This document shows positions 1-64,000 of a DNA stretch of 64,000 nucleotides, one piece after another. Where the stretch lies: assembly GCA_016871575.1 (NCBI GenBank), contig VHCW01000001.1, forward strand, positions 35,731 to 99,730, in the 5' to 3' direction. The first letter of the stretch is position 1; each line of letters starts with the position of its first letter. The notes below the pieces were generated by a model. The model saw nothing but the letters and a program-made list of their open reading frames with translations. It was not told the origin of the DNA and made no database searches. The translations under genes and the position numbers were made by a program. This DNA comes from Verrucomicrobiota bacterium (GTDB lineage Bacteria; Verrucomicrobiota; Verrucomicrobiia; Palsa-1439).

Positions 1-281
1 AACACGTGCTGGTACAAGAACAGCAAGGCGCTGAACGCTTGGTTCTGAGTTGAGGCGCTGACCCTGCCTTTTACAGCCAGGTGCGTCAGGAACTCGCGCA
101 CGTGTATTGCAGTCAACTCTTGCGGATGGCGTTTCCCGTGGAAGTAAATGTAACGTTTGATCCACTGGACATAAGTCTGTTCGGTGCGCAGGCTGTAATG
201 TTTGAAACGGCAGACCTGCCGAACCTGATCAAGCAATTTTGGCTTGTGAGCTGCCGTTGCGCTCGGTAAACTGCTGTCCAT
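1..281 (-). CDS. intI: Integron-integrase-like tyrosine recombinase, N-terminal part. The gene runs off the window start and its ATG is at 279-281 on the minus strand.
   Basis: Reverse-complement translation of 1..281 reads [93 protein letters not shown]. From memory of IntI1, this matches its N-terminus (..[33 protein letters not shown]....[22 protein letters not shown]). The ORF tool missed it because it is partial; the + strand ORF at 81..269 is its antisense shadow. Confidence 0.72.
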   Translation of the reverse strand, partial: [93 protein letters not shown]

Positions 282-391
282 GAAGCTGGTTCATAACAAA
301 CAAGGCGACCAATGGCCAGCCGAATTAGGCGACCGTCAGTCGCCTTTTTCTACGACCTTAGGTCGTCTAATTATAAGTTCGGTGAAGTAGA

Positions 392-1375
392 ATGAATAGC
401 CCATTGCACATTCTCACATCTGTCATTGTAACGGCACTATTCTGCGGGTGTAATTCGGTTGCTGAATACGGAGGGAAACTTTCGTCTCCGAAAGAAGCTC
501 ATGTGGATTTGTCGGATCAAACTCTGACGAAGTTCGTTGATGGTTCCAGCCAGCTACTGTTTCGATATCTGGCCGGAAATCCCCGCTGGGAGATACGCGA
601 GGAGCGTGGTCTGCGTTACGCAGTTCGCCTTGAGCGTGTTGATGGAGAGTTCGAGACCACGCTCAATGGATTCTACTCGACCTCCAACGGCGGCGCGGTG
701 CGACAGACACGCGTCCTCATCTCGTTTGGCAAGGCGTACGGTTTTGGTCGCGAGCGGGGAAACATTACCCGAACGGAACCAGGTCAGAAGGACGTTTCAC
801 TGATCGTTGAGGGAGACCACGCAGGAACCCCCGGGAACTCGTCTTACACAATCATTGCGGGGGGAAATGTATTTCTTGAAATCTACGATCAAGAACCGGC
901 ACTTACTCGCACGTTTACCCAGACGGCCTTCAATGAAGTGTCCGCAGAATTGCGCGATGTAATTGCGCACCGTGAGTCGATTGAGAAGACCGGTATCCTT
1001 CCCGTACCAGAGCATTACCCAAAGCCCCTCCCACGAAAGAAGTATTTCGAGGTGAAGGATGGCATGCAGCCGGGGATATACTTGATCGCTGCGGCGGTTA
1101 ATCCCACTGAACCCGGATATGCATACATCAAGGCCTTCAATACCAAGACCGGGGAGAGATTGTCTGAGGAGCGGATGACTCCCCGCTCAATTCGTTATTT
1201 GGGTTGGTCGGACGATGGGAAGACATTCTTTCCATACGGATCGGAGGTCACGGTCTATGAAGGCGACTGGAGTTCGACTTACGAAGCTCGTTTTGAGCTT
1301 TGGCATCGATCGGACAAGGGTGCTGAGAAGAAACTCGACGAGACAACCAGATTGATCAACGGATGGCAGCGATGA
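392..1375 (+). CDS. Hypothetical secreted or lipoprotein-like protein. It is the first gene downstream of and divergent from intI, and its GC content is clearly lower than the rest of the window.
   Basis: 327-aa ORF with an N-terminal hydrophobic signal (LTSVIVTALFCGC). No recognisable catalytic motifs. AT-richer codon usage than neighbouring genes. Confidence 0.55.
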   Translation: MNSPLHILTSVIVTALFCGCNSVAEYGGKLSSPKEAHVDLSDQTLTKFVDGSSQLLFRYLAGNPRWEIREERGLRYAVRLERVDGEFETTLNGFYSTSNGGAVRQTRVLISFGKAYGFGRERGNITRTEPGQKDVSLIVEGDHAGTPGNSSYTIIAGGNVFLEIYDQEPALTRTFTQTAFNEVSAELRDVIAHRESIEKTGILPVPEHYPKPLPRKKYFEVKDGMQPGIYLIAAAVNPTEPGYAYIKAFNTKTGERLSEERMTPRSIRYLGWSDDGKTFFPYGSEVTVYEGDWSSTYEARFELWHRSDKGAEKKLDETTRLINGWQR

Positions 1376-1447
1376 ACTCAGAATCACCGAACAAGGCGGT
1401 GCAGGCAACGTCGCTCTGCGCCGTGCCTGACCTTTGAAGTTCGGCGT

Positions 1448-2212
1448 TCACTTCCCAGCCTTGTTGAGATGCTTGTCGAAGAAGCCGAGCACCAACGGAC
1501 GGAGGTCGCGTTGTTTCGGCTGTAAATGAAACGTGTGCGGCGCGCCCTCGATGATGACGAGTTCGTGCGCGACACCGGCTTTCGTGAGCGCGGCGGCGAG
1601 TTCGCGGGAACGCGCGACATCAACAGTTTTGTCGGCAGTGCCGTGCAGGATGAGGAACGGCGGATCATTCTTGTCGAGGTAGCGCAACACCGCTGTCACG
1701 GGAAGTTCGCCTGCGGGCAGTTCGCCGACTTTCATGTAGAGCGGGCCGTACATGTCCACGACGCAACTCACGCTTGACGGGACATCGCCGTAGGGGTCTT
1801 TCGGTTCGAGGCCGTCGCGGGGCTGGGTGACGCCGACCATCGCGGAGAGATGTCCGCCAAGATAGGGATTGTCGAAGTCGCCCTCGCGCGCTTTGAACTC
1901 GTCGAGGCTGACGCACACACCGGCATCGCGGAGTTTTTCCAGTGTCTTCTCGATGCCGCACGCCTTGACGCTGTCGGCGAGGTCGTTGTGCTCGCAACCA
2001 GCCCGAAGCAACAGCTTGCGGTACGGGCTGACCGGGAGATCATAGATCAACTTCTTCGCAAGTGCGATAAAAATTCCGTTCCGGTTCTCCATCCGCCGTC
2101 GGATGTCGGCGACCGCTTGGTCGTGAGTCACTGGCGTCCGAAGGAACCGGCGAAGCCCGCCGGCCAGCCGCGCCAGTTGCCTGATTCGCGCCAATCTCAT
2201 TATGCGGCGCAT
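1448..2212 (-). pseudogene. Chimeric ORF, probably a gene remnant. An N-terminal ~110-aa segment paralogous to the N-terminus of the adjacent adenylating enzyme is fused to the C-terminal Asp/His half of an alpha/beta hydrolase, and the nucleophile region is missing.
   Basis: ORF 1448..2278 (alternative start M23 at 2212). Residues ..SPYRKLLLRAGCEHNDLADSVKACGIEKTLEKLRDAGVCVSLDEFKAREGDFDN align with ..SPYLPLLRRAGCAYEDIADGVRREGLEKFLARLKSAGVWVSFDEFKSAQQDFNN of ORF 2264..3790. The C-terminal part carries the HGTADKTVD and APHTF motifs of the dienelactone-hydrolase/prolyl-oligopeptidase family, but no GxSxG nucleophile elbow was found. Confidence 0.4.
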
Positions 2213-2263
2213 GATTGTTTCCTTGCGTGGCGGGCGCAATGAAATATTCTGCAAACAACACAC

Positions 2264-3790
2264 ATGACGTGGCGACAAGGCACATCCTATTTGCGGTTTC
2301 TGGCAGGGCTGCGGCAGTTCCTGAATTCACCGGTTTCATTTGAACAAGCGCGCGCCGCCCTGGCGCACGCGCTCCAACACCGGGAGGAAAACTTCCTCCA
2401 GATGCTCCAGCAATGTGTTTATGCAAATCCCGCCAGCCCGTACCTGCCGCTTCTGCGTCGGGCAGGCTGCGCCTACGAGGACATCGCCGATGGCGTGCGC
2501 CGCGAGGGGCTGGAGAAGTTTTTGGCGCGCCTGAAAAGCGCGGGCGTCTGGGTGTCGTTCGACGAGTTCAAGTCCGCCCAACAGGATTTCAACAACTACG
2601 CTCTCTCGGCCACCTGTGAGGTTTCGTCCGGCGGCAGTTCGGGTCAAACAGCCCGAAGCCACTTGGACTTGGATTACCTGGAGTTTCGCAGTTACTACGA
2701 TCATTTGTTCTTCCAGATGCTGGATTTGTATCGAGTGCCGATGGGGCTTTGGTATCCCAAACTCCCGGCAGTCACCGGCGTTGGGAACTGTCTTCGTTAC
2801 GCCAAGCTGGGCAAACCAGTGGACCGCTGGTTTTCCCTGCTCGCAACGGATCAGGTCAAATCCGGCCGCGCATTGTCCTTTGCCACCGACCTGATGGTTT
2901 GGGCCAGCCGGTTGTCCCGCCGCCCGTTGCCGATGCCGGAACTGCTCGAAATGGACAAGGTGGACACGGCGCTGGATTGGATACTTCAACAGCGGCAGAA
3001 CACCGGCCGCTGCGCTTTTCAGAGTTATCTCAGCCAGGTAATCCGCATCGCCCAAGCCGCCAAAACTCGCGAAACGGACTTGTCGAGTGTGGTGTTTATC
3101 GTCGGGGCGGAGCCGTTGACAGCAACCAGACATCGCGAGATCGAAGCCGTGGGCGCCCGTGTTTATTCCCGCTATTTTGCCAGCGAAATCGGCAGCATCG
3201 CGCTGGAGTGCGGTTGTCCCTGTGAGATTGGCGACTATCACCTGGTCACTCCCAGTGTCGCCGTTGTCACCGACGGCCCATCGCTTCTGTTCACCTCGCT
3301 CCTGCGTTCCGCGCCCAAAGTCTTGATCAATGTCCAACTGGGCGACAGCGGCATCTTGGAAGACCACGATTGCGGTTGCCTGATCGGCGAACTGGGGCTG
3401 CGCACGCACGTGCGCCAAGTGAGCAGTTTCCGGCGCGCCAAAAGCGAGGGCATGACCGTCCCCCACCGGGACCTCTCGCGCCTGATTGAAGAAGCGCTCG
3501 TTCCCAAGTATGGCGGCTCCTCGCTTGACTATCAGTGGATCGAACGCGAAGATGCGCGCGGTTTGACGCGGCTTTGTCTGCGTGTCCATCCGGACCGCGG
3601 CGCCATCAGCGAAACGGAAATGGTGGAAACCATTCTGGCGTGGTTGCGCCGTGGCGACGCCGGGTTGCCGCTGGCGGCGGAACTGTGGCGGAAAGCGGAC
3701 ACCATCCAGATTGTGAGGGAAAGACCCCAACAGACCGCGTTGGGCAAGACCGTGACCGTTGTTCGAGATGAAACGAAAACAAAACATTGA
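2264..3790 (+). CDS. Adenylate-forming enzyme of the PaaK/F390-synthetase family (phenylacetate-CoA ligase family, CapK-like).
   Basis: 508 aa. It has an SSGGSSGQTA motif resembling the ANL/PaaK phosphate-binding loop and a C-terminal HDCGCLIGELG motif resembling the CxCGR motif of F390-synthetase/PaaK-type enzymes. Its stop overlaps the start of the next gene. Confidence 0.55.
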   Translation: MTWRQGTSYLRFLAGLRQFLNSPVSFEQARAALAHALQHREENFLQMLQQCVYANPASPYLPLLRRAGCAYEDIADGVRREGLEKFLARLKSAGVWVSFDEFKSAQQDFNNYALSATCEVSSGGSSGQTARSHLDLDYLEFRSYYDHLFFQMLDLYRVPMGLWYPKLPAVTGVGNCLRYAKLGKPVDRWFSLLATDQVKSGRALSFATDLMVWASRLSRRPLPMPELLEMDKVDTALDWILQQRQNTGRCAFQSYLSQVIRIAQAAKTRETDLSSVVFIVGAEPLTATRHREIEAVGARVYSRYFASEIGSIALECGCPCEIGDYHLVTPSVAVVTDGPSLLFTSLLRSAPKVLINVQLGDSGILEDHDCGCLIGELGLRTHVRQVSSFRRAKSEGMTVPHRDLSRLIEEALVPKYGGSSLDYQWIEREDARGLTRLCLRVHPDRGAISETEMVETILAWLRRGDAGLPLAAELWRKADTIQIVRERPQQTALGKTVTVVRDETKTKH

Positions 3791-4511
3791 CCCCGATCCG
3801 AGAGTGACCATCCGCGTCATTCACGACTGCAACTTCCATTGCCCGCGCTGCTCCACCTTCAGCGTCCCCGGTCACCCCGCCCGGATGCGGCTTCCCCAAT
3901 TTCGACGCGCCATCAACATCCTTGTCCGGGAAAAGTTCCATGGCGCCCTCACCATCTCCGGCGGCGAACCCACGCTCCATCCGCGCCTGCCCGACATGAT
4001 TCGCTACGCCTCGACGCAACTGCCACAATCCACCCTCATCGTCTTCACCAACGGAAGCTGGGTCGGCGCGAAAAACTGGAAGCGCGCCCTGCGCGGATTG
4101 CTGGGCGGACCGAACGTGGTCATCCACTATTCATTCGACCGCCAGCACGTTGAAGGCGCGTCTCGCGCCGCCGGCGCGGACATGAAAACCGCGCTTTTTG
4201 ACCGGGCGCGGCAATTCGTTCGCGCCACGCCTCCCTCGCGATTTCGGATGGCGTTCAAGGGCGCGTTGCCCGAGGCAAAACAATTTCTCCACCCGCTTGG
4301 CCATGTCCCGATCTACCTCATTCATTTCGAGAAACAACCCGCACGACGACGGAAGAAACCCGGCGTTCTCGCCGTCGAGGTGAGCCGGGACAACCGGATG
4401 GAAGTGTTCCCGACGCTCGGTCACATCCCGCGCGGCGAATCGCTCGGCGGACTGGAAACGCTGGCCGAAGCGCTGCAATGGAACCGGAAGGCTCTTCGCG
4501 ATGCCCGCTGA
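3759..4511 (+). CDS. Radical SAM enzyme, short form without an auxiliary cluster domain.
   Basis: CNFHCPRC (Cx3Cx2C) near the N-terminus, ISGGEPTL, FTNGS. It overlaps the upstream gene by 23-32 nt and the downstream gene by 11 nt, consistent with translational coupling. Confidence 0.75.
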   Translation: MFEMKRKQNIDPDPRVTIRVIHDCNFHCPRCSTFSVPGHPARMRLPQFRRAINILVREKFHGALTISGGEPTLHPRLPDMIRYASTQLPQSTLIVFTNGSWVGAKNWKRALRGLLGGPNVVIHYSFDRQHVEGASRAAGADMKTALFDRARQFVRATPPSRFRMAFKGALPEAKQFLHPLGHVPIYLIHFEKQPARRRKKPGVLAVEVSRDNRMEVFPTLGHIPRGESLGGLETLAEALQWNRKALRDAR

Positions 4512-5418
4512 AAACCTCTCCATTGAACTGAAGATCACCGACCGCTGCAACCAGCAGTGTTTCCACTGCATGAACGATGACCAGCCGTCGGCGGGACGCG
4601 ATCTCGACTGCGAATTGTTCCTCCGCCGGCTGGACGAATGGGCAAGCGGCCGCGCACAGTCCGCCGTCAACTTCACCGAAGTCCGCATGACCGGCGGCGA
4701 ACCGCTGTTGAACTTGCCGGCCGTGACCATCATCGGAGAGCGTTGTCGCCGATTGCAGGTTCCTTGCGGCATCAACACCAACGCGACGTTGCTCGATGAA
4801 CCGGCTCTCGCCCTTCTCCACGCCACCGGACTCTCGACCATCAAAGCCTCCTTCGACAGCCTCGACGAAGATGTCTGGCGCGCGATGCGCGGCTCCGGCC
4901 TTTCGCCGGCAAGGACTGCCGGAGGAATTCGCCGGGCTGTGGCTGCCGGTTTTCATGTCATTGTGCGGTTCACCTTGTGCGCGCACAATCGCAGCCAGTT
5001 GCTCCCCTGTTACCGGGCCGCCCGCGACTGGGGCGTCCACAAGTTCCAAGTCAAACCAATGATCCCCGCCGGTCGCGCCGCCGGCGCCGATTCATTTCTC
5101 GACATCCCCGAACTGCGCCGCGCCATTCAAGAACTCTCCGAAATCGTTTCCGGCCCGGCTGCCGCTCCCGAAATCCTTTGCTGGCCGCCGGACTACGCCG
5201 CCGGACTCGCGGCGCGGCCTTGCGGCAACATGACGAAGATGTACATCGGCACGGATGGAAGCGTGTTCGATTGCAACTACCTCAGCGACCCTCCGTTTGC
5301 CTCGCTGCGCGAGCAGAGCCTCGAAGAAGCCTGCCGCCACCGGCATCGTCGCACCGAAACAACAACCGGCGGGCACTGCGTGCTCGCCGGTTGTCCCGCA
5401 TGGTCGAGTTGTTGGTAA
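4501..5418 (+). CDS. Radical SAM enzyme with a Cys-rich SPASM/twitch-like C-terminal auxiliary domain.
   Basis: CNQQCFHC (Cx3Cx2C), MTGGEPLL, INTNATL. C-terminal Cys-rich stretch: YIGTDGSVFDCNYL....CRH...GGHCVLAGCPAWSSC. Confidence 0.75.
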   Translation: MPAENLSIELKITDRCNQQCFHCMNDDQPSAGRDLDCELFLRRLDEWASGRAQSAVNFTEVRMTGGEPLLNLPAVTIIGERCRRLQVPCGINTNATLLDEPALALLHATGLSTIKASFDSLDEDVWRAMRGSGLSPARTAGGIRRAVAAGFHVIVRFTLCAHNRSQLLPCYRAARDWGVHKFQVKPMIPAGRAAGADSFLDIPELRRAIQELSEIVSGPAAAPEILCWPPDYAAGLAARPCGNMTKMYIGTDGSVFDCNYLSDPPFASLREQSLEEACRHRHRRTETTTGGHCVLAGCPAWSSCW

Positions 5419-6913: not shown

Positions 6914-8248
6914 TTATTGCTTCTTGCCTTTGCCCTTGCCCTTGCCGCCTTCCTGTTTCTTCTTCGGCGCCTCGGTGATCCAACCGGCCAACTGATATTT
7001 GCCGGGAACGGCAACCGGAGCGACCGGATAGGAATCCTTGAGCTTGAGGCCCGGCGGCGGCAGGAGGTTGAGGTCGCACTTCACGGTGAACCAATTGCGG
7101 GTGAACTGCCGCATCGAGTAGGCGGACTCGCGCGCCATGATCGCGCTGAGCGTGCTCTCGGCCACGGTTTTGCCTTCGTTGAGCGGATTGCCGCTGCGAA
7201 TGCTGGCGATGAGGTCCGTGTGCTCCTGCACGTAGGGATCGGTCGCTTGCCCCTCGAACTTCCACGGTTTCTCGCCGGTGATGGAGGCGTTGCTGTTGTC
7301 CAGATTCGCCACGCCCTTGGTCCCGACGATGCGTTCGCTGACGCGGAAGTCCGCGCCTTGGATTTGACGGCAGGTGCTGAGTGTCCGGACATCGCCCGGA
7401 TAAAAGAACTCCGCGCCAAAGTGATCGTAAATGTTGCCGTACTCCTCGCCCGTGCGGAACTGGCGCCCGCCAACAGCGTGAACGGAGTCAGGCAACGCGT
7501 TGAACGCCCAGTTGACGACATCAATGTTGTGCATGTGCTGCTCGACGATGTGGTCGCCGCTGAGCCACGTGAAATAGAGCCAGTTGCGAAGCTGCCACTC
7601 GACGTCGCTCTGGCCGGGTTCGCGTTTCTTGACCCAGAGGCCGCCTTGGTTCCAGTAGCATTGCGCCGAAACGAGAGTTCCAATGTCGCCGCCGTGGATG
7701 CGTTTCATCGCCTCGATGTAGTGCGCCTGATGGCGGCGCTGCGTGCCGGCCACGACGCCGAGTTTCTTCTCGGCAGCCTGTTGCGAGGTCTCAAGGACCA
7801 TCTTGATGCCGGTCGGGCAGACGGCGACGGGTTTTTCCATGAACACGTGTTTGCCCGCTGCGATGGCAGCCGCGAAATGAAACGGACGAAACCCCGGCGG
7901 CGTGGCGAGGATGACAAGGTTCACGTCAGCCAACGCCAGCACTGCCTTGTAGGCGTCCAGCCCGGTGAAACACCGGTCGTCGGGGACTTCAAATTGTTTC
8001 TTCAACGCGGCCAGCCGGTCGCCGAAGGCGTCGGCCAGCGCGACGATCTTCACGCCATCCGACGACGCCACGCAATTCTTCGCGGCGCCGGTGCCGCGCC
8101 CGCCGCAGCCGATGACGCCCACGCGGATGGTGTCGGTGGATGCCGCCCAGAGGTTGCGTGTGAACGCGCTGTTGAGGGCGAGGCCGCCGGTGAGGACCGC
8201 CGTGTTCCGGAGGAACTGGCGGCGAGTAAGACTGTTTCTATTTGCCAT
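6914..8248 (-). CDS. Gfo/Idh/MocA family oxidoreductase with a TAT signal peptide.
   Basis: MANRNSLTRRQFLRNTAVLTGGLALNSA, then IRVGVIGCGGRGTGAA. Start chosen at the internal ATG (codon at 8246-8248), because the upstream part of the ORF is low-complexity. Confidence 0.85.
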   Translation of the reverse strand: MANRNSLTRRQFLRNTAVLTGGLALNSAFTRNLWAASTDTIRVGVIGCGGRGTGAAKNCVASSDGVKIVALADAFGDRLAALKKQFEVPDDRCFTGLDAYKAVLALADVNLVILATPPGFRPFHFAAAIAAGKHVFMEKPVAVCPTGIKMVLETSQQAAEKKLGVVAGTQRRHQAHYIEAMKRIHGGDIGTLVSAQCYWNQGGLWVKKREPGQSDVEWQLRNWLYFTWLSGDHIVEQHMHNIDVVNWAFNALPDSVHAVGGRQFRTGEEYGNIYDHFGAEFFYPGDVRTLSTCRQIQGADFRVSERIVGTKGVANLDNSNASITGEKPWKFEGQATDPYVQEHTDLIASIRSGNPLNEGKTVAESTLSAIMARESAYSMRQFTRNWFTVKCDLNLLPPPGLKLKDSYPVAPVAVPGKYQLAGWITEAPKKKQEGGKGKGKGKKQ

Positions 8249-8343: not shown

Positions 8344-10143
8344 TCAACCGATGGCCCGCAACACCTCGATCACACCGGCGCCGCCGCCGGGGGACATCAG
8401 GTAGAGGCCGTCCCAACCTTCGCGCTTGACCCGGCGAATTTGCCCGCTGGCAATCTCGCGCCCGGCCTTCGCTTGATCGTCCAACGTCTCGAATGCGGCG
8501 AGCCGGTTCAGGATTTCGTCGGGCAACACGACGCCGGGCACTTCGGCGACGCGACGGGCCTGGTCGAGACTGGCGAGCACCATCACGCCGACCAGAAACG
8601 CGCAGTTGCCGCCGCGGAATGTCTCCAGCGCGGCCAGCGGTTCGTGTCGGAACGCGGGCTGGGTCATCACGTAGTCGGCGCCGTTGTCGAGCTTTTGCCG
8701 GAGCTTGTCCAGTTCGCGCCCGCGGTTGACCGCTTCCGTCTCGAACCCGGTGCCGATGGTGAAATGGGTGCGCGGGTCGGCTTGTTTGCCGAGCGGCGCG
8801 CCGCCAAAATCCACGCCGGCGTTGAGACAGGCATGTGTGAGGCGCACCATCGCCGGCGAATCGAGGTCGAAGACGGCCGTCGAACGCGGATACGTCGGCG
8901 ACATCTTCGGCGGATCGCCGGTGATGAAGAGGACGTTGTGAATGCGGTTGGCGTGATAACCGATGAGCCGGCTTTGGATGCCCATCAGATTCAGGTCGCG
9001 CGCGGCAAAGTGCGGGATGAACTCCAGCGCGCCGCCGAGCTGGCCGCGAACGATGTGGATGAAATCGCCGGGCGGCATCAACGGGATGCCGCGCGATCCA
9101 TCGGTGATGTCCACGGCGTCAGCCAGCCCGCTGGCGCTCAGTTGGCGGATGAAATCCACTTTGTGCTGGAGGGCCTTCGCGTCCGTGCCCCGCGGCGGAA
9201 GGAGTTCGACGCTGACGGCAAACTCGCCATCCACAATTTTGCGCGAGAACGGCCCGTTGGCGCGTTTCTCGGCGTCACCCGCCGCCGGTGTGGCAGCGGT
9301 GTTGACGACGGCAACGCTGCGGGTTTGGCGGGAGCGGAGGTAATTGTGCATCTCGCGAATGTGCGGCGGATGCACCTCGCAACAGCCGCCGATGAGCCGC
9401 ACGCCGCGGTCAAGAAAACTGCGGGCGAGTTTGCCGACGTACTCCGGGTTGACGTTGGTCATGAACCGGTGGCCGATGCGCTGGAAACCGCCGCCGTTGG
9501 GCATCACGGAGAGCAGCACGCCGGGAAAATCCTTCACGGCCTCGACAAAAGCGTCGGCGTCCCACGGCGCGCAGCAGTTGACGCCGGCGACGGGCACGCA
9601 CCGGGCGCGCATCCGCGCGACGAAGCCAAGCGGGTCGGCTGGGTCGGTCAGTTCGGCGATGAGCGGCGGAAGATTGGGATGCGATTGGACGACGTCGAGC
9701 GCGCTCTCCAAGTCGGCAAGCGAGCGGAACGTCTCCAACAACAACGCGTCGGGCTTGGCGGCGGTGAGCGCCTCGATCTGTTCGCGGTCAGCGCCGGGAC
9801 CGACAGACGCGAGGATGAACACCGGCTCCGCGGGCTGGAATCGGGCGATGGCGTCGCGGGCGATCTGGACGCCGGCGCGGTTGATGGCGGCAGCCTGCTT
9901 GTCGAGGCCGAACAATTGGAGCGCGGAGCGGTTGCCGCCGAAGGTGTTGGTCTTCAGGCAGCGCGCCCCGGCGGCGAGGTAGGCGAGGTGGATCTCCTGG
10001 ATCAGTTCAGGGCGGTCGAGATTGAAGGATTCATAAACATGGTTGGCCTCCGAGAGCCGGCCCGTGCGCTCGAAGAGCAGCGAACCCATCGCGCCGTCCG
10101 CCAGCAACGGCCCGTCGCGCAATGTTGTCAGGAAATCTGTCAT
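8344..10143 (-). CDS. Bifunctional homocysteine S-methyltransferase / 5,10-methylenetetrahydrofolate reductase (MTHFR).
   Basis: The N-terminal half has the S-methylmethionine/homocysteine methyltransferase (Pfam S-methyl_trans) fold (..LLADGAMGSLLFERTG..CLKTNTFGGN..). The C-terminal half is MTHFR-like (..VSVELLPPRGTD....FITGDPPK..). Start taken at MTDFL. Confidence 0.7.
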   Translation of the reverse strand: MTDFLTTLRDGPLLADGAMGSLLFERTGRLSEANHVYESFNLDRPELIQEIHLAYLAAGARCLKTNTFGGNRSALQLFGLDKQAAAINRAGVQIARDAIARFQPAEPVFILASVGPGADREQIEALTAAKPDALLLETFRSLADLESALDVVQSHPNLPPLIAELTDPADPLGFVARMRARCVPVAGVNCCAPWDADAFVEAVKDFPGVLLSVMPNGGGFQRIGHRFMTNVNPEYVGKLARSFLDRGVRLIGGCCEVHPPHIREMHNYLRSRQTRSVAVVNTAATPAAGDAEKRANGPFSRKIVDGEFAVSVELLPPRGTDAKALQHKVDFIRQLSASGLADAVDITDGSRGIPLMPPGDFIHIVRGQLGGALEFIPHFAARDLNLMGIQSRLIGYHANRIHNVLFITGDPPKMSPTYPRSTAVFDLDSPAMVRLTHACLNAGVDFGGAPLGKQADPRTHFTIGTGFETEAVNRGRELDKLRQKLDNGADYVMTQPAFRHEPLAALETFRGGNCAFLVGVMVLASLDQARRVAEVPGVVLPDEILNRLAAFETLDDQAKAGREIASGQIRRVKREGWDGLYLMSPGGGAGVIEVLRAIG

Positions 10144-10788: not shown

Positions 10789-11496
10789 GTGGAGAACGCT
10801 GAACCGAAAGCGACACTGGCGCCTGTCACGGCTTGCATCGCGCCTTCGCTTCGCGATCGCGTGCGGCTGGCGCAGGGATTTTATTTTCTGTTTTTCGGCG
10901 GCATGGCCTCGGTGGTGTTTGTGGCAGAGATGACGCTGGCCACGGCGCCCCGTTCATTTTCCACGCCGTTGTGCGCCGGCAGCCTGTTGGCGATGCTGGT
11001 CGGTGCGTGGCGATTGCACTGTGTCAAAACACTCGGCATGGAATGGGCGCAATCGGTCCGGTGCCTGCTCATTGCGACGGCGTTGCTGGCGTATCTGTTT
11101 CCGTTTCTCTGGGCTTGGCGGCAGTTTCCCAGGAATTTTTATTTCTGCTGTCATGGCCTCGCGTTTCTCGGAATGCTGATCCTGACCGTGATGGCGATGT
11201 CGGTCGCCAGCGCCGCGCTGGCGCGGGCGGCGGGACGGACAGGGCTGACCTGGCAGATGGTGTTGAGCTTGGTCACGGCGCTCGTGATCCAACTCGCGCC
11301 GTTTACCTATCTGGCGCGCCTGCTGGCCGGCGGCGTCATGCAGGGCGAAGACGTCATGATGAAACTGCAAGCCTTCGTCGCGCATGTTCATCTATTCTGG
11401 GTGATCCTGTGGCTGCTGCCGTTCACGTTGTCGCTCTCCTTGGTCTGGACCGCCAAGGACATCGCGCTGGAACAATTGCTGGACGCAAAACAATAA
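10789..11496 (+). CDS. Hypothetical integral membrane protein.
   Basis: Multiple hydrophobic segments and no conserved motifs. The antisense ORF 10833..12209 is rejected as a shadow. Confidence 0.4.
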   Translation: MENAEPKATLAPVTACIAPSLRDRVRLAQGFYFLFFGGMASVVFVAEMTLATAPRSFSTPLCAGSLLAMLVGAWRLHCVKTLGMEWAQSVRCLLIATALLAYLFPFLWAWRQFPRNFYFCCHGLAFLGMLILTVMAMSVASAALARAAGRTGLTWQMVLSLVTALVIQLAPFTYLARLLAGGVMQGEDVMMKLQAFVAHVHLFWVILWLLPFTLSLSLVWTAKDIALEQLLDAKQ

Positions 11497-11498
11497 GC

Positions 11499-12194
11499 TT
11501 ACGAAAAACTGCGGGTGATCCGGCCTGGCTGGCGGCGCAGCAGCGGATCAGTCACGATCATCCGCACTGCGTTCCAAATCGTTTCCGGTGGACTGTGCCG
11601 CTCGATGCGCCCCGCGCGGATGGCCGCGAACAACGACAGCACCGTCGGCTCGGCGTCCACCAGCGAGTAATGCTGGCCGAACATCCAGAGGTTGTGCGCA
11701 TCGGATGTCGCCACGACGGTCTTGCCGTGCGCGGCGGCGACGCGAAGGGCCTTGCGGTTGGAATTCAGCCACGTGAAATGCAGGTGGCAATACTCGATCG
11801 CGTCGAACACGTCCATGTAGCGTTCCAACCAGCGATGCAGGCTGTGTTTGAAGAAATACGGATGCGGCGCCATCATCAACACATCGTCGCCGCGCTCGCG
11901 CCGCAACGCGCGCAGATCATCGAGTGTCCGGAGCTGTTCGCACTCGCGCTGGCTGATGTTGTAGAGCAACACATCGCCGTGCGGCGATTCCCATTCGACG
12001 CCGCGCACCAGCAACACGCCTTTGCTCCGCGCGTAGTCGAACACCCGCTCATCGTCGAGCACCACGCCGTGCAACGTCACCGCCAGCGCGCCGAAGCCGA
12101 GCGCCGCCGCCTTGTCAATCACCGCTGTCGCCGGGTGCGGCAGGCCATCCTCGGGGTCTTCGCCGGCGTGCGTGTGGAGGTCCACCTTGATCAT
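11499..12194 (-). CDS. PHP (polymerase and histidinol phosphatase) domain metal-dependent phosphoesterase.
   Basis: MIKVDLHTHAGED..., typical of the N-terminus of PHP-domain proteins. Its start overlaps the AddA-like stop (ATGA). Confidence 0.7.
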   Translation of the reverse strand: MIKVDLHTHAGEDPEDGLPHPATAVIDKAAALGFGALAVTLHGVVLDDERVFDYARSKGVLLVRGVEWESPHGDVLLYNISQRECEQLRTLDDLRALRRERGDDVLMMAPHPYFFKHSLHRWLERYMDVFDAIEYCHLHFTWLNSNRKALRVAAAHGKTVVATSDAHNLWMFGQHYSLVDAEPTVLSLFAAIRAGRIERHSPPETIWNAVRMIVTDPLLRRQPGRITRSFS

Positions 12195-15100
12195 TTCAGC
12201 ACCAGATAGCGGTCGGCGGTCACTGCGTAGAGTCCGAGTTCCTTGACGGCCTGGCCGGTGGCAGCCTGCCAGCAAGTCCGGTATGACTCCAACTGCACCC
12301 GATATTGCTCCAGCAACGTTTCCGGTCTTTCCATGCGGTCGGTTTTGTAATCCACCAACACCCAGCCGTCCGCCTCCTCAAAGGCCAAATCAATCACTCC
12401 GCGCACCAGTCCATCCGCCAACGCCACCACCACCGGCGCTTCCGCCAACCGCCGCTGGGCCTTCTGCGCCCGCTGCCACAATTCCGACTTCACCACCTTC
12501 CCCGCCACCGCCACCGCCTCACCGGCCAGCGCAACATCCAATTCCGCCGCCCGCAACGCCGACACTGCCGCCGCGTGCAAATCGCCGGCCGGCTCACGCA
12601 TCGCCGTTTGCAACAACAAATGAATCACGCTCCCCCAACGCATCCCGTCACCGTCCGTTCGCGCCATCACCGCCGCCGTTGCCGGCTTCGCGGCGCGCGT
12701 CGCGTAGGTTGGCGTTTTGATTGTCTCCCAACGCGCGGCAATCGCCGCGCGCGCCGCCGCCACGTCCGCGCCCGTCAACGTGACCGGTTTCGTCACCGGC
12801 GCCGATTGCGGTCCCGGATCCGGCAATGCCGCCGCATCTTTCAGCGCCGGTTCCAATGGATTCCACGGATTCGATGCCGCGCGTTTGTCGCGCAACGACA
12901 CGATCAACTGGTCCCGCGCCCGCGTTGCGGCGACGTAGAGCAGCCGGTTTTCCTCCGCCTGCCGGAACTGCGCTTCGCGTGCGGCGAGTTTTTCCCAATC
13001 CAGCGGATGCGCGAGCAACGATCCCCTGCCAAACGCGTTCGTCGCGCCGTACAACGCCAAGTGCCCGGTCACCCGCGCGCCGCGCCGGTCCACGTGCAAT
13101 TCCACCTCGTGCTCGCTCGCGCCGGCCGGGTCGGCCAGGAAGACCACCGGCGCTTGCAGTCCCTTGACCTTGTGCAAATTCATCACGCGCACCGCGGCGC
13201 CGGTCGGCGCGGTCGCCGATGCGCCGTCGTGCGGTTCATCCGCCGTTGCCCACCGTCCCAACTGTTCCACCATCGCCGCCGCCGTCGGCCAGTCCGCCTG
13301 CCCGGCGCGCAACAACTCCAGCGCCTTGCCGAGGCTGCCGGCTTCCACGTCGCCGCCCGGCGCGCCGGCCGCCAGCGGCAACAAACCGAGGTCGTTCGCG
13401 ACCCGTTCCACCGCAATCACCGGCGCCAGCGACCCCAACCACTCCGCAAACCGGCGCAACACCGCAAACGCTTCGCCCATCGGCCCGGTCGCGTCGCTCC
13501 GCCAATCAAACCGCCCGCCGGCGCGCCGGTGGGCGTACAGTTCCTCGTCGCTGAACCCGAACAACTCGCTGCGCAACGCCGCCACGACCGCGACCGGGTT
13601 GTCGGGTTCGAGCGCGGCGCGCAACGCGGCGTGCCAGAGACCGAGTTCGCGCACTTCGTTGAGCGAACTGCCGCCGGTCACCTCGTGCGGCAGGCCGAGT
13701 TGTTGCAGCGCGTCGGCGTACACGCTCAGCCGGTCCTTCCGTCGGGTGACGATGAGAAAATCTCCCGGCGTCCGGCCCGATGCGCGGATGTGCCGCGCGA
13801 TGAAATCCGCCTCGGCAACCGCGATGTCGCTCTGATTGTCGCCGGTGACCTTGACCTGAAAAACGGCGGCATCAGCGGGTTGCTCCTCGCGCCCCACCAA
13901 AAACGGCACATACCCCGGCGCGACTTCGTTCGCCGCGGCGGGGAAGAACTTGCCGCCGCCAAACACCGCGTTCACCCAATCCACCACCGGCCTGGCCGAG
14001 CGGAAGTTCGCCGACAGCGTGACGACCGCGCCGCCGGTGTCCTGGATGATTTGTTTCACCGTGTTGTACGTCACGATGTCGGCGCGGCGGAACCGGTAGA
14101 TGGACTGCTTCGGGTCGCCGACCACAAACAACGACCCCGGCGCGGGCCGGCACTTGCGCCAGTCGCGTTCGCGCAGGTTCTCGGCGGTCAACAGCAACAT
14201 CACTTCGGCCTGCACCGGGTCGGTGTCCTGAAACTCGTCCACGAGCACGTGCGTAAACCGGCGGCGGAAGTATTGCCGGACTTCGGGGCGCTCGCGCAGC
14301 AGCTTGGCGGCGAGCAACAACAAATCCTGGAAATTCAATCCGTGCGCCGCCTCGCGTTGCCGGTCATAGACGGCCCGCACGCCCTGCAACACGCGCAGCA
14401 CCGACGGATACCGGTGCGCCCGCCACGCCGTCACGAACGGCCCGGCCACGTCGTCGCAAAACTTGTCCCACTGTTCGTGTTCGCGCAACGCCTGTTCCTT
14501 GCCGTTGGGCCAATACTTGTGCGTGCACTTGCGGCCCGGTTTGAACTGCTCCAGAATCTCCGCCACTTCCGAGCGGCGCGCCAGGTCGTGCGAGCGCAAC
14601 ATCCGCAGCACGCGACGGAACAATCCTGCCAACTCGTCCGTGCCATTCGGATCCGGCAGGTTTTTCTCCATGTGCGCCGCGTATTCGCGCAGCGCCGCCA
14701 CCGCCGGCATCAACGCCGGCGCCGGCACTTCGGGCGCGGGCCAGTCGTGCACATCCGGGTAGTTGGCGAACCGTTGGAACGCCGGCCACAAATCCGCCAG
14801 CGGGATGCCGAGTTCATCCAACTCGTTGAGCAGCGAATCGTCCTTTGCGAACAACTCGTTTGTGAAGTTTTCCCACGCCTGATGGCGGAGCCGTCCGTCG
14901 CGTTCGTCGTCGAGTTCCTCGAAATCCGGGTCCACGCCCGCCTCGACCGGCCGCTCGCGCAGCAGTCGCCCGCAAAACGAATGCACCGTGCTGATCTGGC
15001 ATTGCGCCGCCTGGGGAAGTTTCTCACGCAACCGCTCGCGCAGTTCCGCCGCCGCCTTGCGGGTGAACGTCACCGCCGCCAGCGTGTCGGCGCTGCATTT

Positions 15101-17886: not shown

Positions 17887-18999
17887 ATGAAGATTTTGGC
17901 GAAGTATATCATACGGCAGGTGGTCATCACGCTGTTTTTCAGCCTCGGCGTGTTCACCTTCGTCCTGTTGTTGGGGCGGATGCTGAAGAAACTCAGCGAG
18001 ATGCTGGTGAACCGTCACGTGAGCCTGGAGTCCATCGGGATGTTCATCGTGCTGCTGATGCCGTACGTGTTGAGCTTCACGCTGCCGATGGCGTTGCTGG
18101 CGGCGACGCTGCTGACGTTCGGGCGGATGAGCGCGGACAATGAGATCACCGCCATGCGGGCGAGCGGCATCGGGCTGGGCCGCGTGGCCGCGCCGGTGAT
18201 TTTGCTGGCGGCGGCGATGATGTGCGTTTCCCTGTACGTCAACACGACGCTCGCGCCACGATGCCGGCTGGCGTTTCGGACCCTGTTTCTGCACGTGAGC
18301 ACCCACCAGCCGGAGGCGTTGATTGAGGAGAAGACGTACGTGAAGGATTTTCCGGGTTACGTCATCTACGTCGGCAAGAAAAACAAGAATGTGATCGAAG
18401 ACATCACGTTGTACACGCTCGGCGCGGGCGGCAACGTGGCGTCGAGCTTGCGGGCGCAGCGCGGCATCATCACGGGAAAACCGGCGGAGCGAAAAGTCCT
18501 GCTGGAACTGTACCACGTGCGCGGCGAGATTCGCGACCCGAAAGACCCGACCGATCCGCGCAAGATTCGGCCGGGGATCACTGCGGAACATTACCCGGTC
18601 GAGCTTGACCTGGGGGCCGTCTATCAACAAACGATGACATCGCGCGGCGTGCAGGAATTGCAGATGCCGGAGCTGTTGGCCGAGATCCGCCATTTGCAGG
18701 CAAAAGGGCTTTATCCGTCGGTGGCCTTGATGGAGGCGCACCAACGCGTGGCGGGGGCGGTGGCGTGTGTCGCCTTTGTGCTGATTGGCATTCCGCTCGG
18801 CATCAAGACCAGCCGGCGGGAAACCTCCATCGGGATTGCGATCAGCCTCGCATTGTCAGTGGCTTATTATTTTACGATGGTGCTTGCCAACGCGCTCCGC
18901 AACAAACCACACCTCTTTCCAGAAGCGATTTTGTGGATGCCCAATCTCGTCTTCGAGTTGCTCGGCTTGTGGTTGCTCTGGCGCCTGTCGCGCGTTTAG
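17887..18999 (+). CDS. LptF/LptG family lipopolysaccharide export permease (YjgP/YjgQ).
   Basis: MKILAKYIIRQVVITLFFSLGVFTFVLLLG..., the typical LptF/G N-terminus. Confidence 0.78.
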   Translation: MKILAKYIIRQVVITLFFSLGVFTFVLLLGRMLKKLSEMLVNRHVSLESIGMFIVLLMPYVLSFTLPMALLAATLLTFGRMSADNEITAMRASGIGLGRVAAPVILLAAAMMCVSLYVNTTLAPRCRLAFRTLFLHVSTHQPEALIEEKTYVKDFPGYVIYVGKKNKNVIEDITLYTLGAGGNVASSLRAQRGIITGKPAERKVLLELYHVRGEIRDPKDPTDPRKIRPGITAEHYPVELDLGAVYQQTMTSRGVQELQMPELLAEIRHLQAKGLYPSVALMEAHQRVAGAVACVAFVLIGIPLGIKTSRRETSIGIAISLALSVAYYFTMVLANALRNKPHLFPEAILWMPNLVFELLGLWLLWRLSRV

Positions 19000-34858: not shown

Positions 34859-35986
34859 TTACCTGTAGGTTTTCTTTTTACAAAGTATAGGCATTTGTGA
34901 GTTCGACGATGATCCCATATCAAGCAGGTGGTCTTGGATTGTATCAATCGCTTTCCAACCGGGAGGGATGCGGGAGTCGTGTCGTTCAATGAATCGGTGC
35001 GTCCAACTGGTGGAACTCGTATGGAAGCCAATTATCGCCTTGGAGCAATATTCAGTCAGTCCCACTGCGTCAAGGAGCACCCGGATGTCTCCAGGGTAGC
35101 GTACGAGGTCTTGCCAATCAGCGACATCATAATCAACCCCGAATTCCGCTCTAACTGCGCCTAGAATGTCATCAGAAATTCTGTATTTCCTCTTTGTAAT
35201 GCGAAACCGAAGCGCATTTGCCCTCTCGACGGTTGACATTGATGCCTTCAAGTCTAAGTTTGCTGGCCAGCACCCTTGGAATAAGGTCACCCCGTCTGCT
35301 CCAATTATCTTCAAGGCTATACCTGTTATATTGGGAGGGCGGAACTTTATGGTTTCTTGGAAAGAACCAGACCGTCTGGTCGCCGACCCGCACTTCGTCG
35401 TGAAACCGGGACAATCAACGATTACGGCTTTCCCCGCTGCAATTGGCGGCACATGAACCCGGTCTATCTGCATCGCGTGTGCAGATTTGTCAGATTTTAT
35501 AATCACATTCTGTGGCGGAATTGTCAGATGTTCCGAATCGAGAGGCGATGGATACGCTTCGAATCTGTAAGAAGCATCTATTACGAGTCCTTGTAGTGAT
35601 AGGGTGCTTTGGGAGAGCCTGACTCGAAGAAACTGGCGCAGTAGACTGGGTTTTCGCACGAAGGTGTAATGAATAACAACGAGAGGACGATGTTCGGTGT
35701 TTCGATCTTCTTCCAAAGGAATTGAGGAATCGTTCTCGTTGATTTGAGCGATCACCGCTTGAACTGCAAATGGCGGACTCCTGCTTGCCGGAATGTAAAG
35801 ATTGAGTGGGAGACTGGAAGAAAGTCGAGGAGCTTTTGAGACGTCTGAATAGAATTCCGCTTCAGCCGCCGATACCTCCTTCCGAGCAAGATTCTCTATC
35901 GTATCTTTGGCAATCGTTGAACCAGAATACATGACTGTGATTGTGGAACATATGATCAATATCAGTGTTTTCATATGAGAGTCCAT
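34859..35986 (-). CDS. Orphan secreted hypothetical protein encoded on a low-GC islet.
   Basis: Signal peptide MKTLILIICSTITVMYS. The GC content of 34740..36330 is visibly lower than the flanks. No motifs recognised. Confidence 0.5.
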   Translation of the reverse strand: MDSHMKTLILIICSTITVMYSGSTIAKDTIENLARKEVSAAEAEFYSDVSKAPRLSSSLPLNLYIPASRSPPFAVQAVIAQINENDSSIPLEEDRNTEHRPLVVIHYTFVRKPSLLRQFLRVRLSQSTLSLQGLVIDASYRFEAYPSPLDSEHLTIPPQNVIIKSDKSAHAMQIDRVHVPPIAAGKAVIVDCPGFTTKCGSATRRSGSFQETIKFRPPNITGIALKIIGADGVTLFQGCWPANLDLKASMSTVERANALRFRITKRKYRISDDILGAVRAEFGVDYDVADWQDLVRYPGDIRVLLDAVGLTEYCSKAIIGFHTSSTSWTHRFIERHDSRIPPGWKAIDTIQDHLLDMGSSSNSQMPILCKKKTYR

Positions 35987-36181
35987 CAGCCTCCGACGGT
36001 GATGCTCATTTCGTTGCTCCATTGGCCGACTTGTTGGTCGCCGACACGATAAATGGCGCGGTATTTCCATTTGACCAGCGTGGCGGGTGGCGGACAGGTG
36101 TCGGTGTAGCCGGGTGTGGTGTCGAACGCGAACTTCATCCAGCAATGAAGTACGGTAATCGGCGAGAGAAAGAAGTCGGTC

Positions 36182-53476: not shown

Positions 53477-53499
53477 GTCCCGTCCTCTTGTTGAATGCG

Positions 53500-61591: not shown

Positions 61592-62429
61592 GCGCCACAT
61601 CCACGACCACCGCCGCCAAAAAAACGACGCTGATGATCGCATTCATCCGGAAAAACGCCGCATTCAAACTTACCGCGTCCTGTTTCCGCGCCAACACGTG
61701 TTGTGCCGCCAAACACACTGCGATAATTGCCAACCCGGCGTAATACACCCATCCCAATCCTGCCACCCAACCAAACCCCGCCAGCGTCAATGCCATCACG
61801 GCATGCGCCCATCGTGCAAACCGCAGGCTCTCCGCGATTCCCAACCGCACCGGCAATGAGCGCAGTCCCAGCGCCTTGTCCGCTTCATAATCCTGCGTCG
61901 CGTATATGATGTCGAACCCGACCAGCCAGAACACCACTGCCAAGCCCAACACCACCGGCGGCCAATCGAAGTGACCGGTGACCGCCAGCCAAGCTCCCAC
62001 CGGCGCGACTGCCAGCGCCAATCCTAAAAAGAAATGCGAGAAATCCGTGAACCGTTTCGTCAGCGAGTAAAAGAAAACAATCACCAACGCCACTGGCGAC
62101 AACACAAAACAAATCCGATTGATGAAGTAGCAAACAGCTACAAACAACGCTCCACTACTCCACACCAAAACCCACCCCTCCAATTTGCTGATTTTCCCCG
62201 CCGGCAAATGTCGTCCCGCCGTCCGCGGATTCAGCGCGTCGAACTTCCGGTCCACGATCCGGTTGAATCCCATCGCCGCCGTCCGCGCGCAAACCATCGC
62301 CGCCAAAATCAACAGAAACAATCGCCACCCCGGCCACCCCCGCGCCGCCACGACCATGCTCGCCAAAGCAAACGGCAGCGCGAACACCGTGTGAGAGAAC
62401 CGGACGAACTCCAAATACTTTCGAATCAC
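61581..62429 (-). CDS. UbiA family prenyltransferase (4-hydroxybenzoate polyprenyltransferase/MqnP-like).
   Basis: NRIVDRKFD Asp-rich motif and multiple transmembrane helices. Confidence 0.8.
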   Translation of the reverse strand: MIRKYLEFVRFSHTVFALPFALASMVVAARGWPGWRLFLLILAAMVCARTAAMGFNRIVDRKFDALNPRTAGRHLPAGKISKLEGWVLVWSSGALFVAVCYFINRICFVLSPVALVIVFFYSLTKRFTDFSHFFLGLALAVAPVGAWLAVTGHFDWPPVVLGLAVVFWLVGFDIIYATQDYEADKALGLRSLPVRLGIAESLRFARWAHAVMALTLAGFGWVAGLGWVYYAGLAIIAVCLAAQHVLARKQDAVSLNAAFFRMNAIISVVFLAAVVVDVALRI

Positions 62430-63115
62430 AACAACCCAATCTCCCGAAGGCTCACATAATCGCAGTCCCGCCCTTCGGTGCGACGGCCCAAAATAATGTG
62501 GTCGTGGACGTTGATGCCGAGTAACTCGCCGGCTTTGACGAGGCGTTTGGTGATGGCGATGTCTTCGCTGCTCGGCGTCGGGTCGCCGCTGGGATGGTTG
62601 TGCGCAAGGATCACGCCGGCGGCGGAAGCAGTGATGGCGTCCTTGAAGACCTCGCGCGGCTCGACAATGCTCGCGTTGAGCGAGCCGAGCGACACGGCGC
62701 AGGTCTTGATAAAAGCATTCTTGGTGTTGAGGAGAATGACGCGGAACGATTCGCGGTCGAGCAGCCGCATTTCCTCGCGCACCAGTTCCGCTGCGTCGGC
62801 GGGCGTCGTGATGATCGGCTGGCGTTCGTGGGCGCGCGCGCGGAGATGACGCGCCAGCATGAATGCGGCCTTCAGTTGAATGGCTTTGGTCTTGCCGACG
62901 CCTTTGATCTTCGCGATTTCTTCCAGCGGCGCGCGCGCCAGCCCGTCCAGTGTGCGGAACGTCTTGATGAGTTCCTGCGCGACCTGTACCGCCGACATTC
63001 CCTTCGTGCCGGTGCGCAGCAGAATCGCAAGCAACTCCGCGTCACCCAGCATCTCGGCACCGAGTCGTGCGAGTCGTTCGCGCGGACGGTCGTCTGCCGG
63101 CATGTCGCGGATCAT
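62426..63115 (-). CDS. radC: DNA repair protein RadC (JAMM/MPN+ family).
   Basis: ..HNHPSGDPTPSSEDIAITKRL..; HhH-like N-terminal part. Start at MIRDMPADD. Confidence 0.85.
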   Translation of the reverse strand: MIRDMPADDRPRERLARLGAEMLGDAELLAILLRTGTKGMSAVQVAQELIKTFRTLDGLARAPLEEIAKIKGVGKTKAIQLKAAFMLARHLRARAHERQPIITTPADAAELVREEMRLLDRESFRVILLNTKNAFIKTCAVSLGSLNASIVEPREVFKDAITASAAGVILAHNHPSGDPTPSSEDIAITKRLVKAGELLGINVHDHIILGRRTEGRDCDYVSLREIGLL

Positions 63116-63374
63116 GTAACGAAATTCCGGCCGAGCCTCGCCGATTTGTGAGCGTGGACTGTCGCTATTCATTTTTATTGTGTCGCCTTCGTTCCGTATC
63201 CTTAACTACGCTAGGCGCACGCCGTGAGCCTGCCCGCGTTCGCAGGCCGCACCTTCGAAGAAAATTCAGTAGGCTCATCACTCAATAACGATGACCGACC
63301 AGTTCCGGAGTGTCGAGCAAATATTTTTCCGTGATTGCATACGGACTCGTTGATTTGATAATCTTTCGGATGAA

Positions 63375-63680
63375 ATGAATCCTTTACATCCACAGTCAGA
63401 GCGAAAGCCGTTCTTCGATTTCAAAGTCGAGGATATTTTCTGGATCAGCGGACATGGCGCTGTTGTCACCGGGACGGTCATCAAGGGAGCAGTCAGGGCG
63501 GGGGCGGCAGCTTTCCTCAAGAAAGCGAATGGCGAAACGAAACCCATAAGAATTACTGGAATTGAGGGATTCCGGAAAATCCTCAAGGAGGCGCTAATGG
63601 GAGAGAATGTTGGGCTGACGATTGCTGATTTGGATAAGGACGATTTCGATATCGGAGATGTTATCACATTTGAATCGTGA
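63375..63680 (+). CDS. Small protein resembling EF-Tu domain 2 (translation-factor beta-barrel), in a lower-GC region.
   Basis: ..FKVEDIFWISGHGAVVTGTVIKGAVRAG....ITGIE.FRKILKEALMGENVGLTI.. has the same pattern as EF-Tu domain II (..[22 protein letters not shown]....GVEMFRK.LDEG.AGDNVG..). Confidence 0.45.
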   Translation: MNPLHPQSERKPFFDFKVEDIFWISGHGAVVTGTVIKGAVRAGAAAFLKKANGETKPIRITGIEGFRKILKEALMGENVGLTIADLDKDDFDIGDVITFES

Positions 63681-64000
63681 GTAGAACCGGCGAACTTTGC
63701 GATTATCTTCCCCCGGAGTGTGTTCCGCTGATTGACAAGTGGATTGGGGATTATGGCGTGGAATGTTTGATCGTCTCGACGCGAAAAACTAAACGGGGTG
63801 ATTGCAGACACAACCGTCGTACCGGCCAAGTGATTATCACGCTGAATGCCGACAACAACAAGTACCGTTTTCTTCTTACGCTGATCCACGAACTAGCACA
63901 CGCAAGAGTATTTCGTGAATCCGGTTTTGCAGGCAAGCCGCACGGCACTCCGTGGAAAAACGTTTTGCGACAGATGGTTTTTGAGGTGAAAGCACTCGGT
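63676..64000 (+). CDS. SprT-like zinc metallopeptidase domain protein. Partial: it runs off the window end. Its GTG start overlaps the stop of the upstream mini-ORF (GTGA).
   Basis: ..GQVIITLNADNNKYRFLLTLIHELAHARVF.. (HExxH). Confidence 0.45.

Follow-up and report, generated by a model that had tools for sequence, protein, structure and literature searches.

Does the left edge of contig VHCW01000001.1 hold an integron, and could such an integron still exchange its cassettes? The question was raised by a stretch of 64,000 bp from a Verrucomicrobiota bacterium (NCBI GenBank assembly GCA_016871575.1, positions 35,731 to 99,730 of the forward strand), referred to here as the window and numbered from its first base. 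An earlier note on this stretch had described an integron-integrase-like gene at the left edge, on the minus strand, with a divergent low-GC open reading frame (ORF) as a possible first cassette. The locus is very probably a decaying chromosomal integron of an uncultured freshwater Verrucomicrobia bacterium, with a truncated integrase gene (intI) and one captured cassette.

Identity and truncation of the integrase

The window contained the 5' part of intI (1..281, minus strand, codons 1-93). Translation from 281 to 1 gave 93 residues which included both segments quoted in the earlier note. This N-terminus matched PF13495, a SAM-like N-terminal domain (E 5.6e-30), and positions 1-78 of the TIGR02249 'integron integrase' model. 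The complete gene was taken from six metagenome contigs, found by exact-product look-up of the 327 amino acid ORF beside intI and 99.5-100% identical to the first 1770-2760 bases of the window. The contig used for coordinates was L001 (JGI 3300020222, Ga0194125_10001129, 45 kb), in which position 9610 corresponds to window position 1. Its source (Ga0194125) was the Lake Tanganyika sample 'K_DeepCast_250m'. The whole intI lay at L001 9009..9890 on the minus strand and encoded a product of 293 amino acids which ended before box II. This product was identical to the NCBI protein 'MAG: integron integrase [Verrucomicrobia bacterium]'.

The 293 amino acid protein scored 402.2 bits against TIGR02249 (cut-off 265), covering model positions 1-277 of 315. 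The XerC and XerD models gave 109 and 105 bits compared to cut-offs of 335 and 330, respectively. The IntI1-type equivalog NF011946 gave 294 bits, below its cut-off of 435, and the integrase is therefore not class 1. The best solved homologue was VchIntIA (PDB 2a3v, E 5.5e-79), with which the protein was collinear over VchIntIA residues 6-281. The patch specific to IntI proteins, an insertion between patch III and box II, was present with many invariant columns across seven relatives and aligned to VchIntIA without gaps up to residue 281. The closest full-length relatives were P0002 (81% identity, contig L007) and P0004 (76%, contigs L008-L010). Divergently from their genes ran arrays of small ORFs which had no Pfam match and were separated by attC sites. 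The composition of intI (GC 0.58, GC at third codon positions (GC3) 0.70) was near that of the host. By its profile scores and its patch the gene is identified as an integron integrase, in agreement with the earlier note, and the IntI-specific domain to be looked for on the leftward-extended protein was found. No intI-like sequence other than the gene at the edge was present in the 64-kb window.

The IntI1 segments given for comparison in the earlier note proved exact. At least 5000 plasmids carried one of them at 100% identity, and both occurred in an ORF adjoining blaCARB-2 and aadA2 cassettes on plasmid pAsa5-3432. The intI1 gene of pAsa5-3432 (L182, NZ_CP038103.1 114933-117998) was truncated after approximately 100 amino acids, with an in-frame fusion to a GroEL-like C-terminus (…GGMGGMGGMDF).

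By comparison with its relatives the integrase is truncated at the C-terminus. The 293 amino acid product stopped at ...HLLENGTV, without the second histidine of box II and without the catalytic tyrosine, leaving the catalytic set R-K-H-R-H-Y incomplete. Relatives (approximately 120 listed) were about 320-338 amino acids long, and all of those aligned ran on past this stop into box II. DNA similarity to the relatives faded directly past codon 291. No remnant of box II was found in any frame in the 420 bp between the intI stop and mutL. This interval was made up of approximately 43 nt of degenerate sequence, a palindromic element of approximately 75 bp and the 3' end, now decayed, of an esterase paralog. 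On nine contigs from several samples the 293 amino acid product was called identically, and the truncation is therefore no accident of assembly. Tyrosine recombinases which lack the nucleophilic tyrosine cannot cleave a DNA strand. Since this residue has been lost the integrase is presumably inactive and the platform would be dead in cis. The truncation lies outside the window and had gone unnoticed in the earlier note.

The palindromic repeat of approximately 75 bp (CCGGTGTAGTGGCCGCCGTCCCGGCGGC…GGCGGCCACTACAAC) was present in two copies in L001. One (8897-8972) sits just past the truncated end of intI. The other (7505-7576) lies in frame within the linker of mutL and encodes AAGVVAAVPAAMSLPIPAAGDGGHYNQ. 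No copy was found in the 64-kb window. The repeat is reminiscent of the intragenic palindromic elements of the Rickettsia type. The decayed 3' remnant of the esterase paralog (L001 8747-8900, minus strand; …AVVAWHDFIRAPAEQ…NWLALGFFEKHLK, followed by a stop codon) had the palindromic element on one side and mutL on the other. The final 27 bp of this remnant were 93% identical to the tail of the esterase gene at window 1448-1490, so that esterase 3' ends flank the integron on both sides.

The cassette and its recombination sites

The cassette was a segment of 1062 bp (378..1439, plus strand) with a GC content of 0.527 compared to 0.609 for the window. It contained the ORF at 392..1375 (plus strand), which encodes 327 amino acids. 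A homologue of this ORF with 78% identity (P0125) was found on contig L017 in a same-strand array of 40% GC, together with small ORFs without assigned function and a HipA toxin module. BLASTn alignment of the window to L017 gave 77% identity over a block from 378 (TTCGGTGAAG…) to 1442 (…GAAGTTC). Homology to L098 started at 377 and homology to L104 ended at 1437. The flanks were unrelated in all three comparisons. Copies of the cassette in other contexts had nucleotide identities of 72-86%. The homology blocks ended at G/TT points (the slash marks the crossover) and the attC site travelled along with the ORF. For this reason 378..1439 is identified as a genuine gene cassette, with its boundaries placed by comparison. 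The divergent ORF suggested as a possible first cassette is on this evidence the first and also the sole one. With the cassette absent, the hypothetical empty attI junction would read …TATAAG/TTCGGCGTTCA…, or …TAATTATAAG/TTCGGCGTTCACTT… in synthetic form.

In L017 (7722-8000) the homologous cassette was preceded by an ORF of 82 amino acids with a gap of 30 bp. The junction there was GGTA/TTCGGT, with A in place of G ahead of TT. From the short gap and this replacement the upstream attC of L017 appears degenerate or to overlap the preceding ORF.

The ORF at 392..1375 had a GC content of 0.524 and a GC3 of 0.564. The 38 other long ORFs of the window had means of 0.612 and 0.76 (standard deviation of GC3 0.073). 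In L017 the GC content of the homologous ORF was 0.49 while its neighbors ranged from 0.32 to 0.40. The ORF is compositionally foreign in both hosts. The claim that it was the only clearly low-GC gene in its part of the window held in so far as its GC content was the lowest in the first 34 kb, but the first 400 bases, containing the intI fragment, were at 0.507. Two other atypical ORFs without Pfam matches were present on the minus strand of the window, one at 34859-36145 (428 amino acids, GC 0.49, GC3 0.48) and one at 52770-53537 (255 amino acids, GC3 0.555). They may have been horizontally acquired.

The attI simple site was located at 365..383 (plus strand). It comprised an L box GTCTAAT (365-371), a spacer TATAA and a core or R box G/TTCGGT (377-383). 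The crossover was placed between 377 and 378 by alignment with L007 and L008 and by the start of foreign cassette homology at 377/378. The core lay 96 bp from the intI start codon. The corresponding junction cores were GTTGGAC, the canonical form, in L008 and GGTAGGC in L007. The spacers between intI and the array of L007 and L008 were aligned to window 230-400 with a mean column identity of 82% across the three integrons. The alignment covered both spacer hairpins and ended …AATT(A)TAA/GTT…. The left border of attI was marked by the conserved motif AGCCGAATTAG (318..328, plus strand), which contains an L-box-like GCCGAAT. It was kept as AGCSGAAWTAG in L007, L008, L018, L052, L059 and L077, with related forms in L020, L025, L027 and L028.

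Two palindromes were present between this motif and the simple site, as the earlier note had described. Palindrome 1 (327..349, plus strand) reads AGGCGAC-cgtca-GTCGCCT followed by TTTTT and is terminator-like on the cassette strand. Palindrome 2 (352..366, plus strand) reads ACGACC-tta-GGTCGT and its 3' arm enters the L box. In an alignment of five sequences 92% of the cells could pair and 6 of 13 base pairs had double-sided changes. None of 500 shuffles reached the observed values. For palindrome 2, double-sided changes were found in four of the six pairs across the five integrons. Distant verrucomicrobial integrons kept the architecture with different palindrome sequences, for example GACGCC-aatct-GGCGTC TTTTTTT ACGCC-attat-GGCGT in L018. 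The shared order was AGCSGAAWTAG, palindrome 1 with its T-run, palindrome 2, an L-box-like GYCKAAT, 4-5 nt and GTT. Both palindromes within one integron shared a half-site, and the half-site changed in concert between integrons. Since the palindromes are conserved and covary in related verrucomicrobial integrons they are assigned to attI, which the alignments indicate to be conserved across this group. The pattern fits sites bound by a co-evolving element-encoded protein. A role as hairpin or terminator is also possible. The palindromes appear unlike the LexA box of Verrucomicrobia.

It is possible, though we propose it only tentatively, that the twin palindromes constitute a new attI module of a verrucomicrobial clade. 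Its four half-sites would co-evolve with the integrase, and palindrome 1 with its T-run would also act as a terminator which insulates the cassettes from transcription on the intI side. In that case the organization of cassette expression and recombination would differ from that of class 1 and Vibrio integrons.

The attC site was 60 bp (1386..1445, plus strand) with R'' ACCGAAC (1386-1392) and R' GTTCGGC (1439-1445). R'' was the exact reverse complement of the attI core GTTCGGT, as expected because integration splits the R' box of the circular cassette. In the consensus, boxes R'' RYYYAAC and R' GTTRRRY are 57-141 bp apart. The invariant AAC and GTT were present here, while position 4 was G and C rather than Y and R. 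The bottom strand had a folding energy of -19.9 kcal/mol (z -4.07, 0 of 200 shuffles), compared to -15.3 kcal/mol (z -1.86) for the top strand. The predicted fold comprised an R stem, a spacer without pairing and a bulged inner stem. The site was homologous to the attC sites 3' of the ORF in L017 and L104. Its 3' end (…gcctgacctttgaaGTTCGGCg) was almost the same as in the third attC of L008 (…ggctgacctttcacGTTCGGCg). In the L007 and L008 arrays every R'' complemented the preceding R'. Distant members of the cassette family carried their own attC sites with the same complementarity between start and R'', for example GTTGGCAGTA / TACTGCCAAC in L106. The relatives L008 and L018 also used the variant core GTTCGGC, in their arrays or in attI. 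Neither a core nor an attC site had been found in the earlier note. Both exist, and they were missed because the core is GTTCGGY and not GTTRRRY. GTTCGGY can be regarded as a working core variant in this clade, and scans with the canonical motif miss such sites.

A heuristic scan for complementary NNNNAAC and GTTNNNN boxes with bottom-strand folding returned three matches in the 64 kb compared to one in a reversed control. The site at 1386-1445 was the sole intergenic match. The other two (34249-34340, plus strand, and 9147-9045, minus strand) were dismissed as they lie inside long ORFs. A looser search on chain properties returned 1030 matches, was far too permissive and was discarded. An attC model built from 33 attC sites of 14 related integrons was also left unused, as the MAFFT/RNAalifold consensus kept the 7-bp R stem alone, too little for a useful search. 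The single Rfam match in the window was a tRNA gene at 44726-44798 (plus strand). A second cassette, recognizable by a GCCGAAC...GTT partner of TTCGGC, was found neither in the window nor in L001 past the start of the esterase gene. On these searches the array consists of one cassette.

The cassette ORF was predicted to encode a lipoprotein, with the signal …ALFCGC and a beta-rich N-terminal domain which a helical linker would join to an Ig/FN3-like beta-sandwich at the C-terminus. The homologue in L017 has the signal …LLCAC. The product is probably a cell-envelope lipoprotein of binding type. Approximately 126 members of the family were detected, including proteins from Rariglobus (Verrucomicrobia) and Winogradskyella (Bacteroidota). 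None had a Pfam domain or an informative name. The cassette ORF had no match in NCBIfam, PHROGs or a PDB sequence profile search. A PT-HINT identity was rejected as the Pfam match was below threshold (E 0.0018, 18.9 bits compared to a cut-off of 27.7). Among 80 metagenomic homologues of the ORF none had an intI within 6 kb. This cassette-borne lipoprotein family is shared by Verrucomicrobia and Bacteroidota, and by arrays which differ widely in GC content.

Genomic setting and alternative explanations

The left side of the integron carried mutL, a Zn-ribbon gene, a URO-D gene and amidohydrolase genes. The nearest relatives by MutL, with proteins 90, 87 and 81% identical, kept this left-side synteny. 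In place of the integron they had a gene of 296-387 amino acids without Pfam match upstream of mutL, and no intI, cassette ORF or esterase gene was found within 8 kb. The element therefore lies where synteny is broken and is specific to its lineage, and 392..1375 is not part of a synteny conserved in these relatives. The element was present in all nine sampled contigs of the population. The suggestion of a cassette-poor, sedentary chromosomal integron was borne out in that the element is chromosomal, has one cassette and is identical in the sampled contigs. It was less apt in that the element is absent from the locus in the MutL relatives, and the element does not appear to be a conserved 'sedentary' feature at genus or family level.

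The right-hand boundary of the array was formed by a chimeric ORF (1448..2278, minus strand) whose stop codon lies 2 bp from R'. The ORF consisted of the C-terminal part of a BD-FAE/S9 esterase fused to an N-terminus of approximately 140 amino acids. This N-terminus was paralogous to that of a 508 amino acid ORF at 2264..3790. The 508 amino acid ORF had no Pfam match and was followed by two radical-SAM genes (3759-4511 and 4501-5418). The region 2264-5418 could be a peptide- or metabolite-modification cluster. L001 diverged from the window past 2740 and carried a 124-bp duplicate of window 1735-1858 and the N-terminal half of the esterase. The end of L001 corresponded to window 64000..62151 in reverse. 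The L001 stretches concerned were 11057-12876 and 18646-20495. The departure of L001 from the window together with the reversed end points to an inversion polymorphism of approximately 67 kb or a chimeric assembly.

In the proposed history an IntI-family tyrosine recombinase encoded divergently from its attI (window about 318-383) would have recombined the folded bottom strand of the attC of a circular cassette with attI at G/TT (377/378). This would have inserted the 1062-bp cassette, made up of a promoterless lipoprotein gene, its own ribosome-binding region and the 60-bp attC. The 3' end of intI would have been lost later, leaving the sequence degenerate past codon 291 and followed by the palindromic repeat and the esterase-paralog remnant. 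The cassette would now be frozen in place unless another integrase of the genome acts in trans. A historical insertion event is what we infer. Expression of the cassette would start at a promoter within the 30 bp which separate the T-run from the core. The twin palindromes would be accessory sites, for integrase binding or for regulation, or would form a terminator.

A different account would take the gene at the edge for a recombinase of the XerC/D or phage type, 392..1375 for a resident gene and the palindrome 3' of it for a terminator shared by convergent genes. The window does hold the 93 N-terminal residues alone, SAM-like N-terminal domains are common to Xer proteins (PF02899 also matches) and canonical GTTRRRY is absent. 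The genes at 392..1375 (plus strand) and 1448..2278 (minus strand) are indeed convergent with a hairpin between them. However, the full-length protein fell far short of the XerC and XerD cut-offs, exceeded that of TIGR02249 and contained the IntI patch. Homology breaks exactly at G/TT and the hairpin moves with the ORF, while the relatives defined by MutL lack the ORF at this locus. The scores and the G/TT-bounded homology already refute this account, the probability of which appears negligible. It is also highly improbable that the integron is functional, with the stop after 293 amino acids an artefact of assembly or sequencing or a programmed frameshift, or with the short protein active. The catalytic residues R146, K171, H277 and R280 (own numbering), the first four of the set, and the whole DNA-binding architecture are intact, and the composition of intI is near that of the host. 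Against this, the nine contigs with the identical product were assembled independently from several samples, and the 420 bp downstream contained no LGH...Y motif in any frame. That stretch is instead filled by the palindromic repeat and the esterase remnant, and the inability of tyrosine recombinases without the tyrosine to cleave DNA is established for the family.

An integron inactive in cis could still be in use if an integron integrase encoded at another place in the genome, or by co-resident bacteria, moved the cassette in trans, the locus then acting as a store with one site. Both attI and attC look intact with the pairing of R'' and R' kept. Close copies of the cassette (72-86% identical) in several contexts indicate recent mobility of the cassette family. 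Clusters of attC sites without an integron integrase (CALINs) and orphan attC sites have been described as common (PMC4889954). A second intI was, however, absent from the 64-kb window and all sampled contigs were in the same occupied state, and use in trans is considered unlikely.

The reading as a decaying chromosomal integron is preferred over these accounts, and several points weigh against it. The window does not include the left part of the element, which is known solely from the contigs of 99.5-100% identity. The search for a second intact intI, which found none, covered the 64-kb window alone. No promoter was identified for the cassette or for intI, and the spacer contained no sigma-70-like promoter. 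The core is GTTCGGY where GTTRRRY is canonical. In the attC the spacers are asymmetric, and no canonical extrahelical bases could be placed. Rfam 15 contains no attC family, and the attC call was made by comparison, folding and the heuristic scan.

Comparison with known integrons

Cury et al. (2016; PMC4889954) define a 'complete integron' as an intI which has one or more attC sites within 4 kb. The locus falls under this definition, with attI beside the 5' end of intI and attC at 1386-1445. A sedentary chromosomal integron is one found in all genomes of a species or one with more than 19 attC sites (PMC4889954). With its one attC the locus does not reach this array size. Verrucomicrobia are listed among the phyla which carry integrons (PMC4889954). 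Integrons in Verrucomicrobia are already known and the element is an ordinary decaying example of a well-known kind. It shares with other chromosomal integrons outside the Proteobacteria a divergent intI, a cassette bounded by G/TT, an attC which folds on the bottom strand and a cassette gene without assigned function. It differs in having one cassette, an intI cut before box II and the core GTTCGGY instead of GTTRRRY.

Compared to VchIntIA (IntI4) of the Vibrio cholerae superintegron, the integrase is collinear over residues 6-281 including the IntI-specific insertion. VchIntIA is full length with 320 amino acids and the catalytic tyrosine, while the last 37 residues or so are missing here. 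The array of VchIntIA numbers well over a hundred cassettes and the present platform has one. The class 1 integron (IntI1, attI1 and the promoter Pc inside intI1) has the same divergent layout and an attI with a simple site and upstream repeats. The N-terminus was 47% identical to IntI1 over 99 amino acids. The upstream repeats of class 1 are the direct repeats DR1 and DR2, whereas two palindromes are present here. A promoter in the position of Pc would be blocked here by the terminator-like hairpin between intI and the core.

In0 and CALIN remnants have likewise lost integrase function and kept recombination sites. The locus is not an In0, as an attC is present, and not a CALIN, which requires two or more attC sites and no intI. 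Pseudogenes of intI were found near 15 of 279 CALINs (PMC4889954). The element does not change what is known of how integrons work. It adds to the known systems a well-delimited non-proteobacterial chromosomal integron in decay, the sites of which were mapped to the base by comparison and not by a model.

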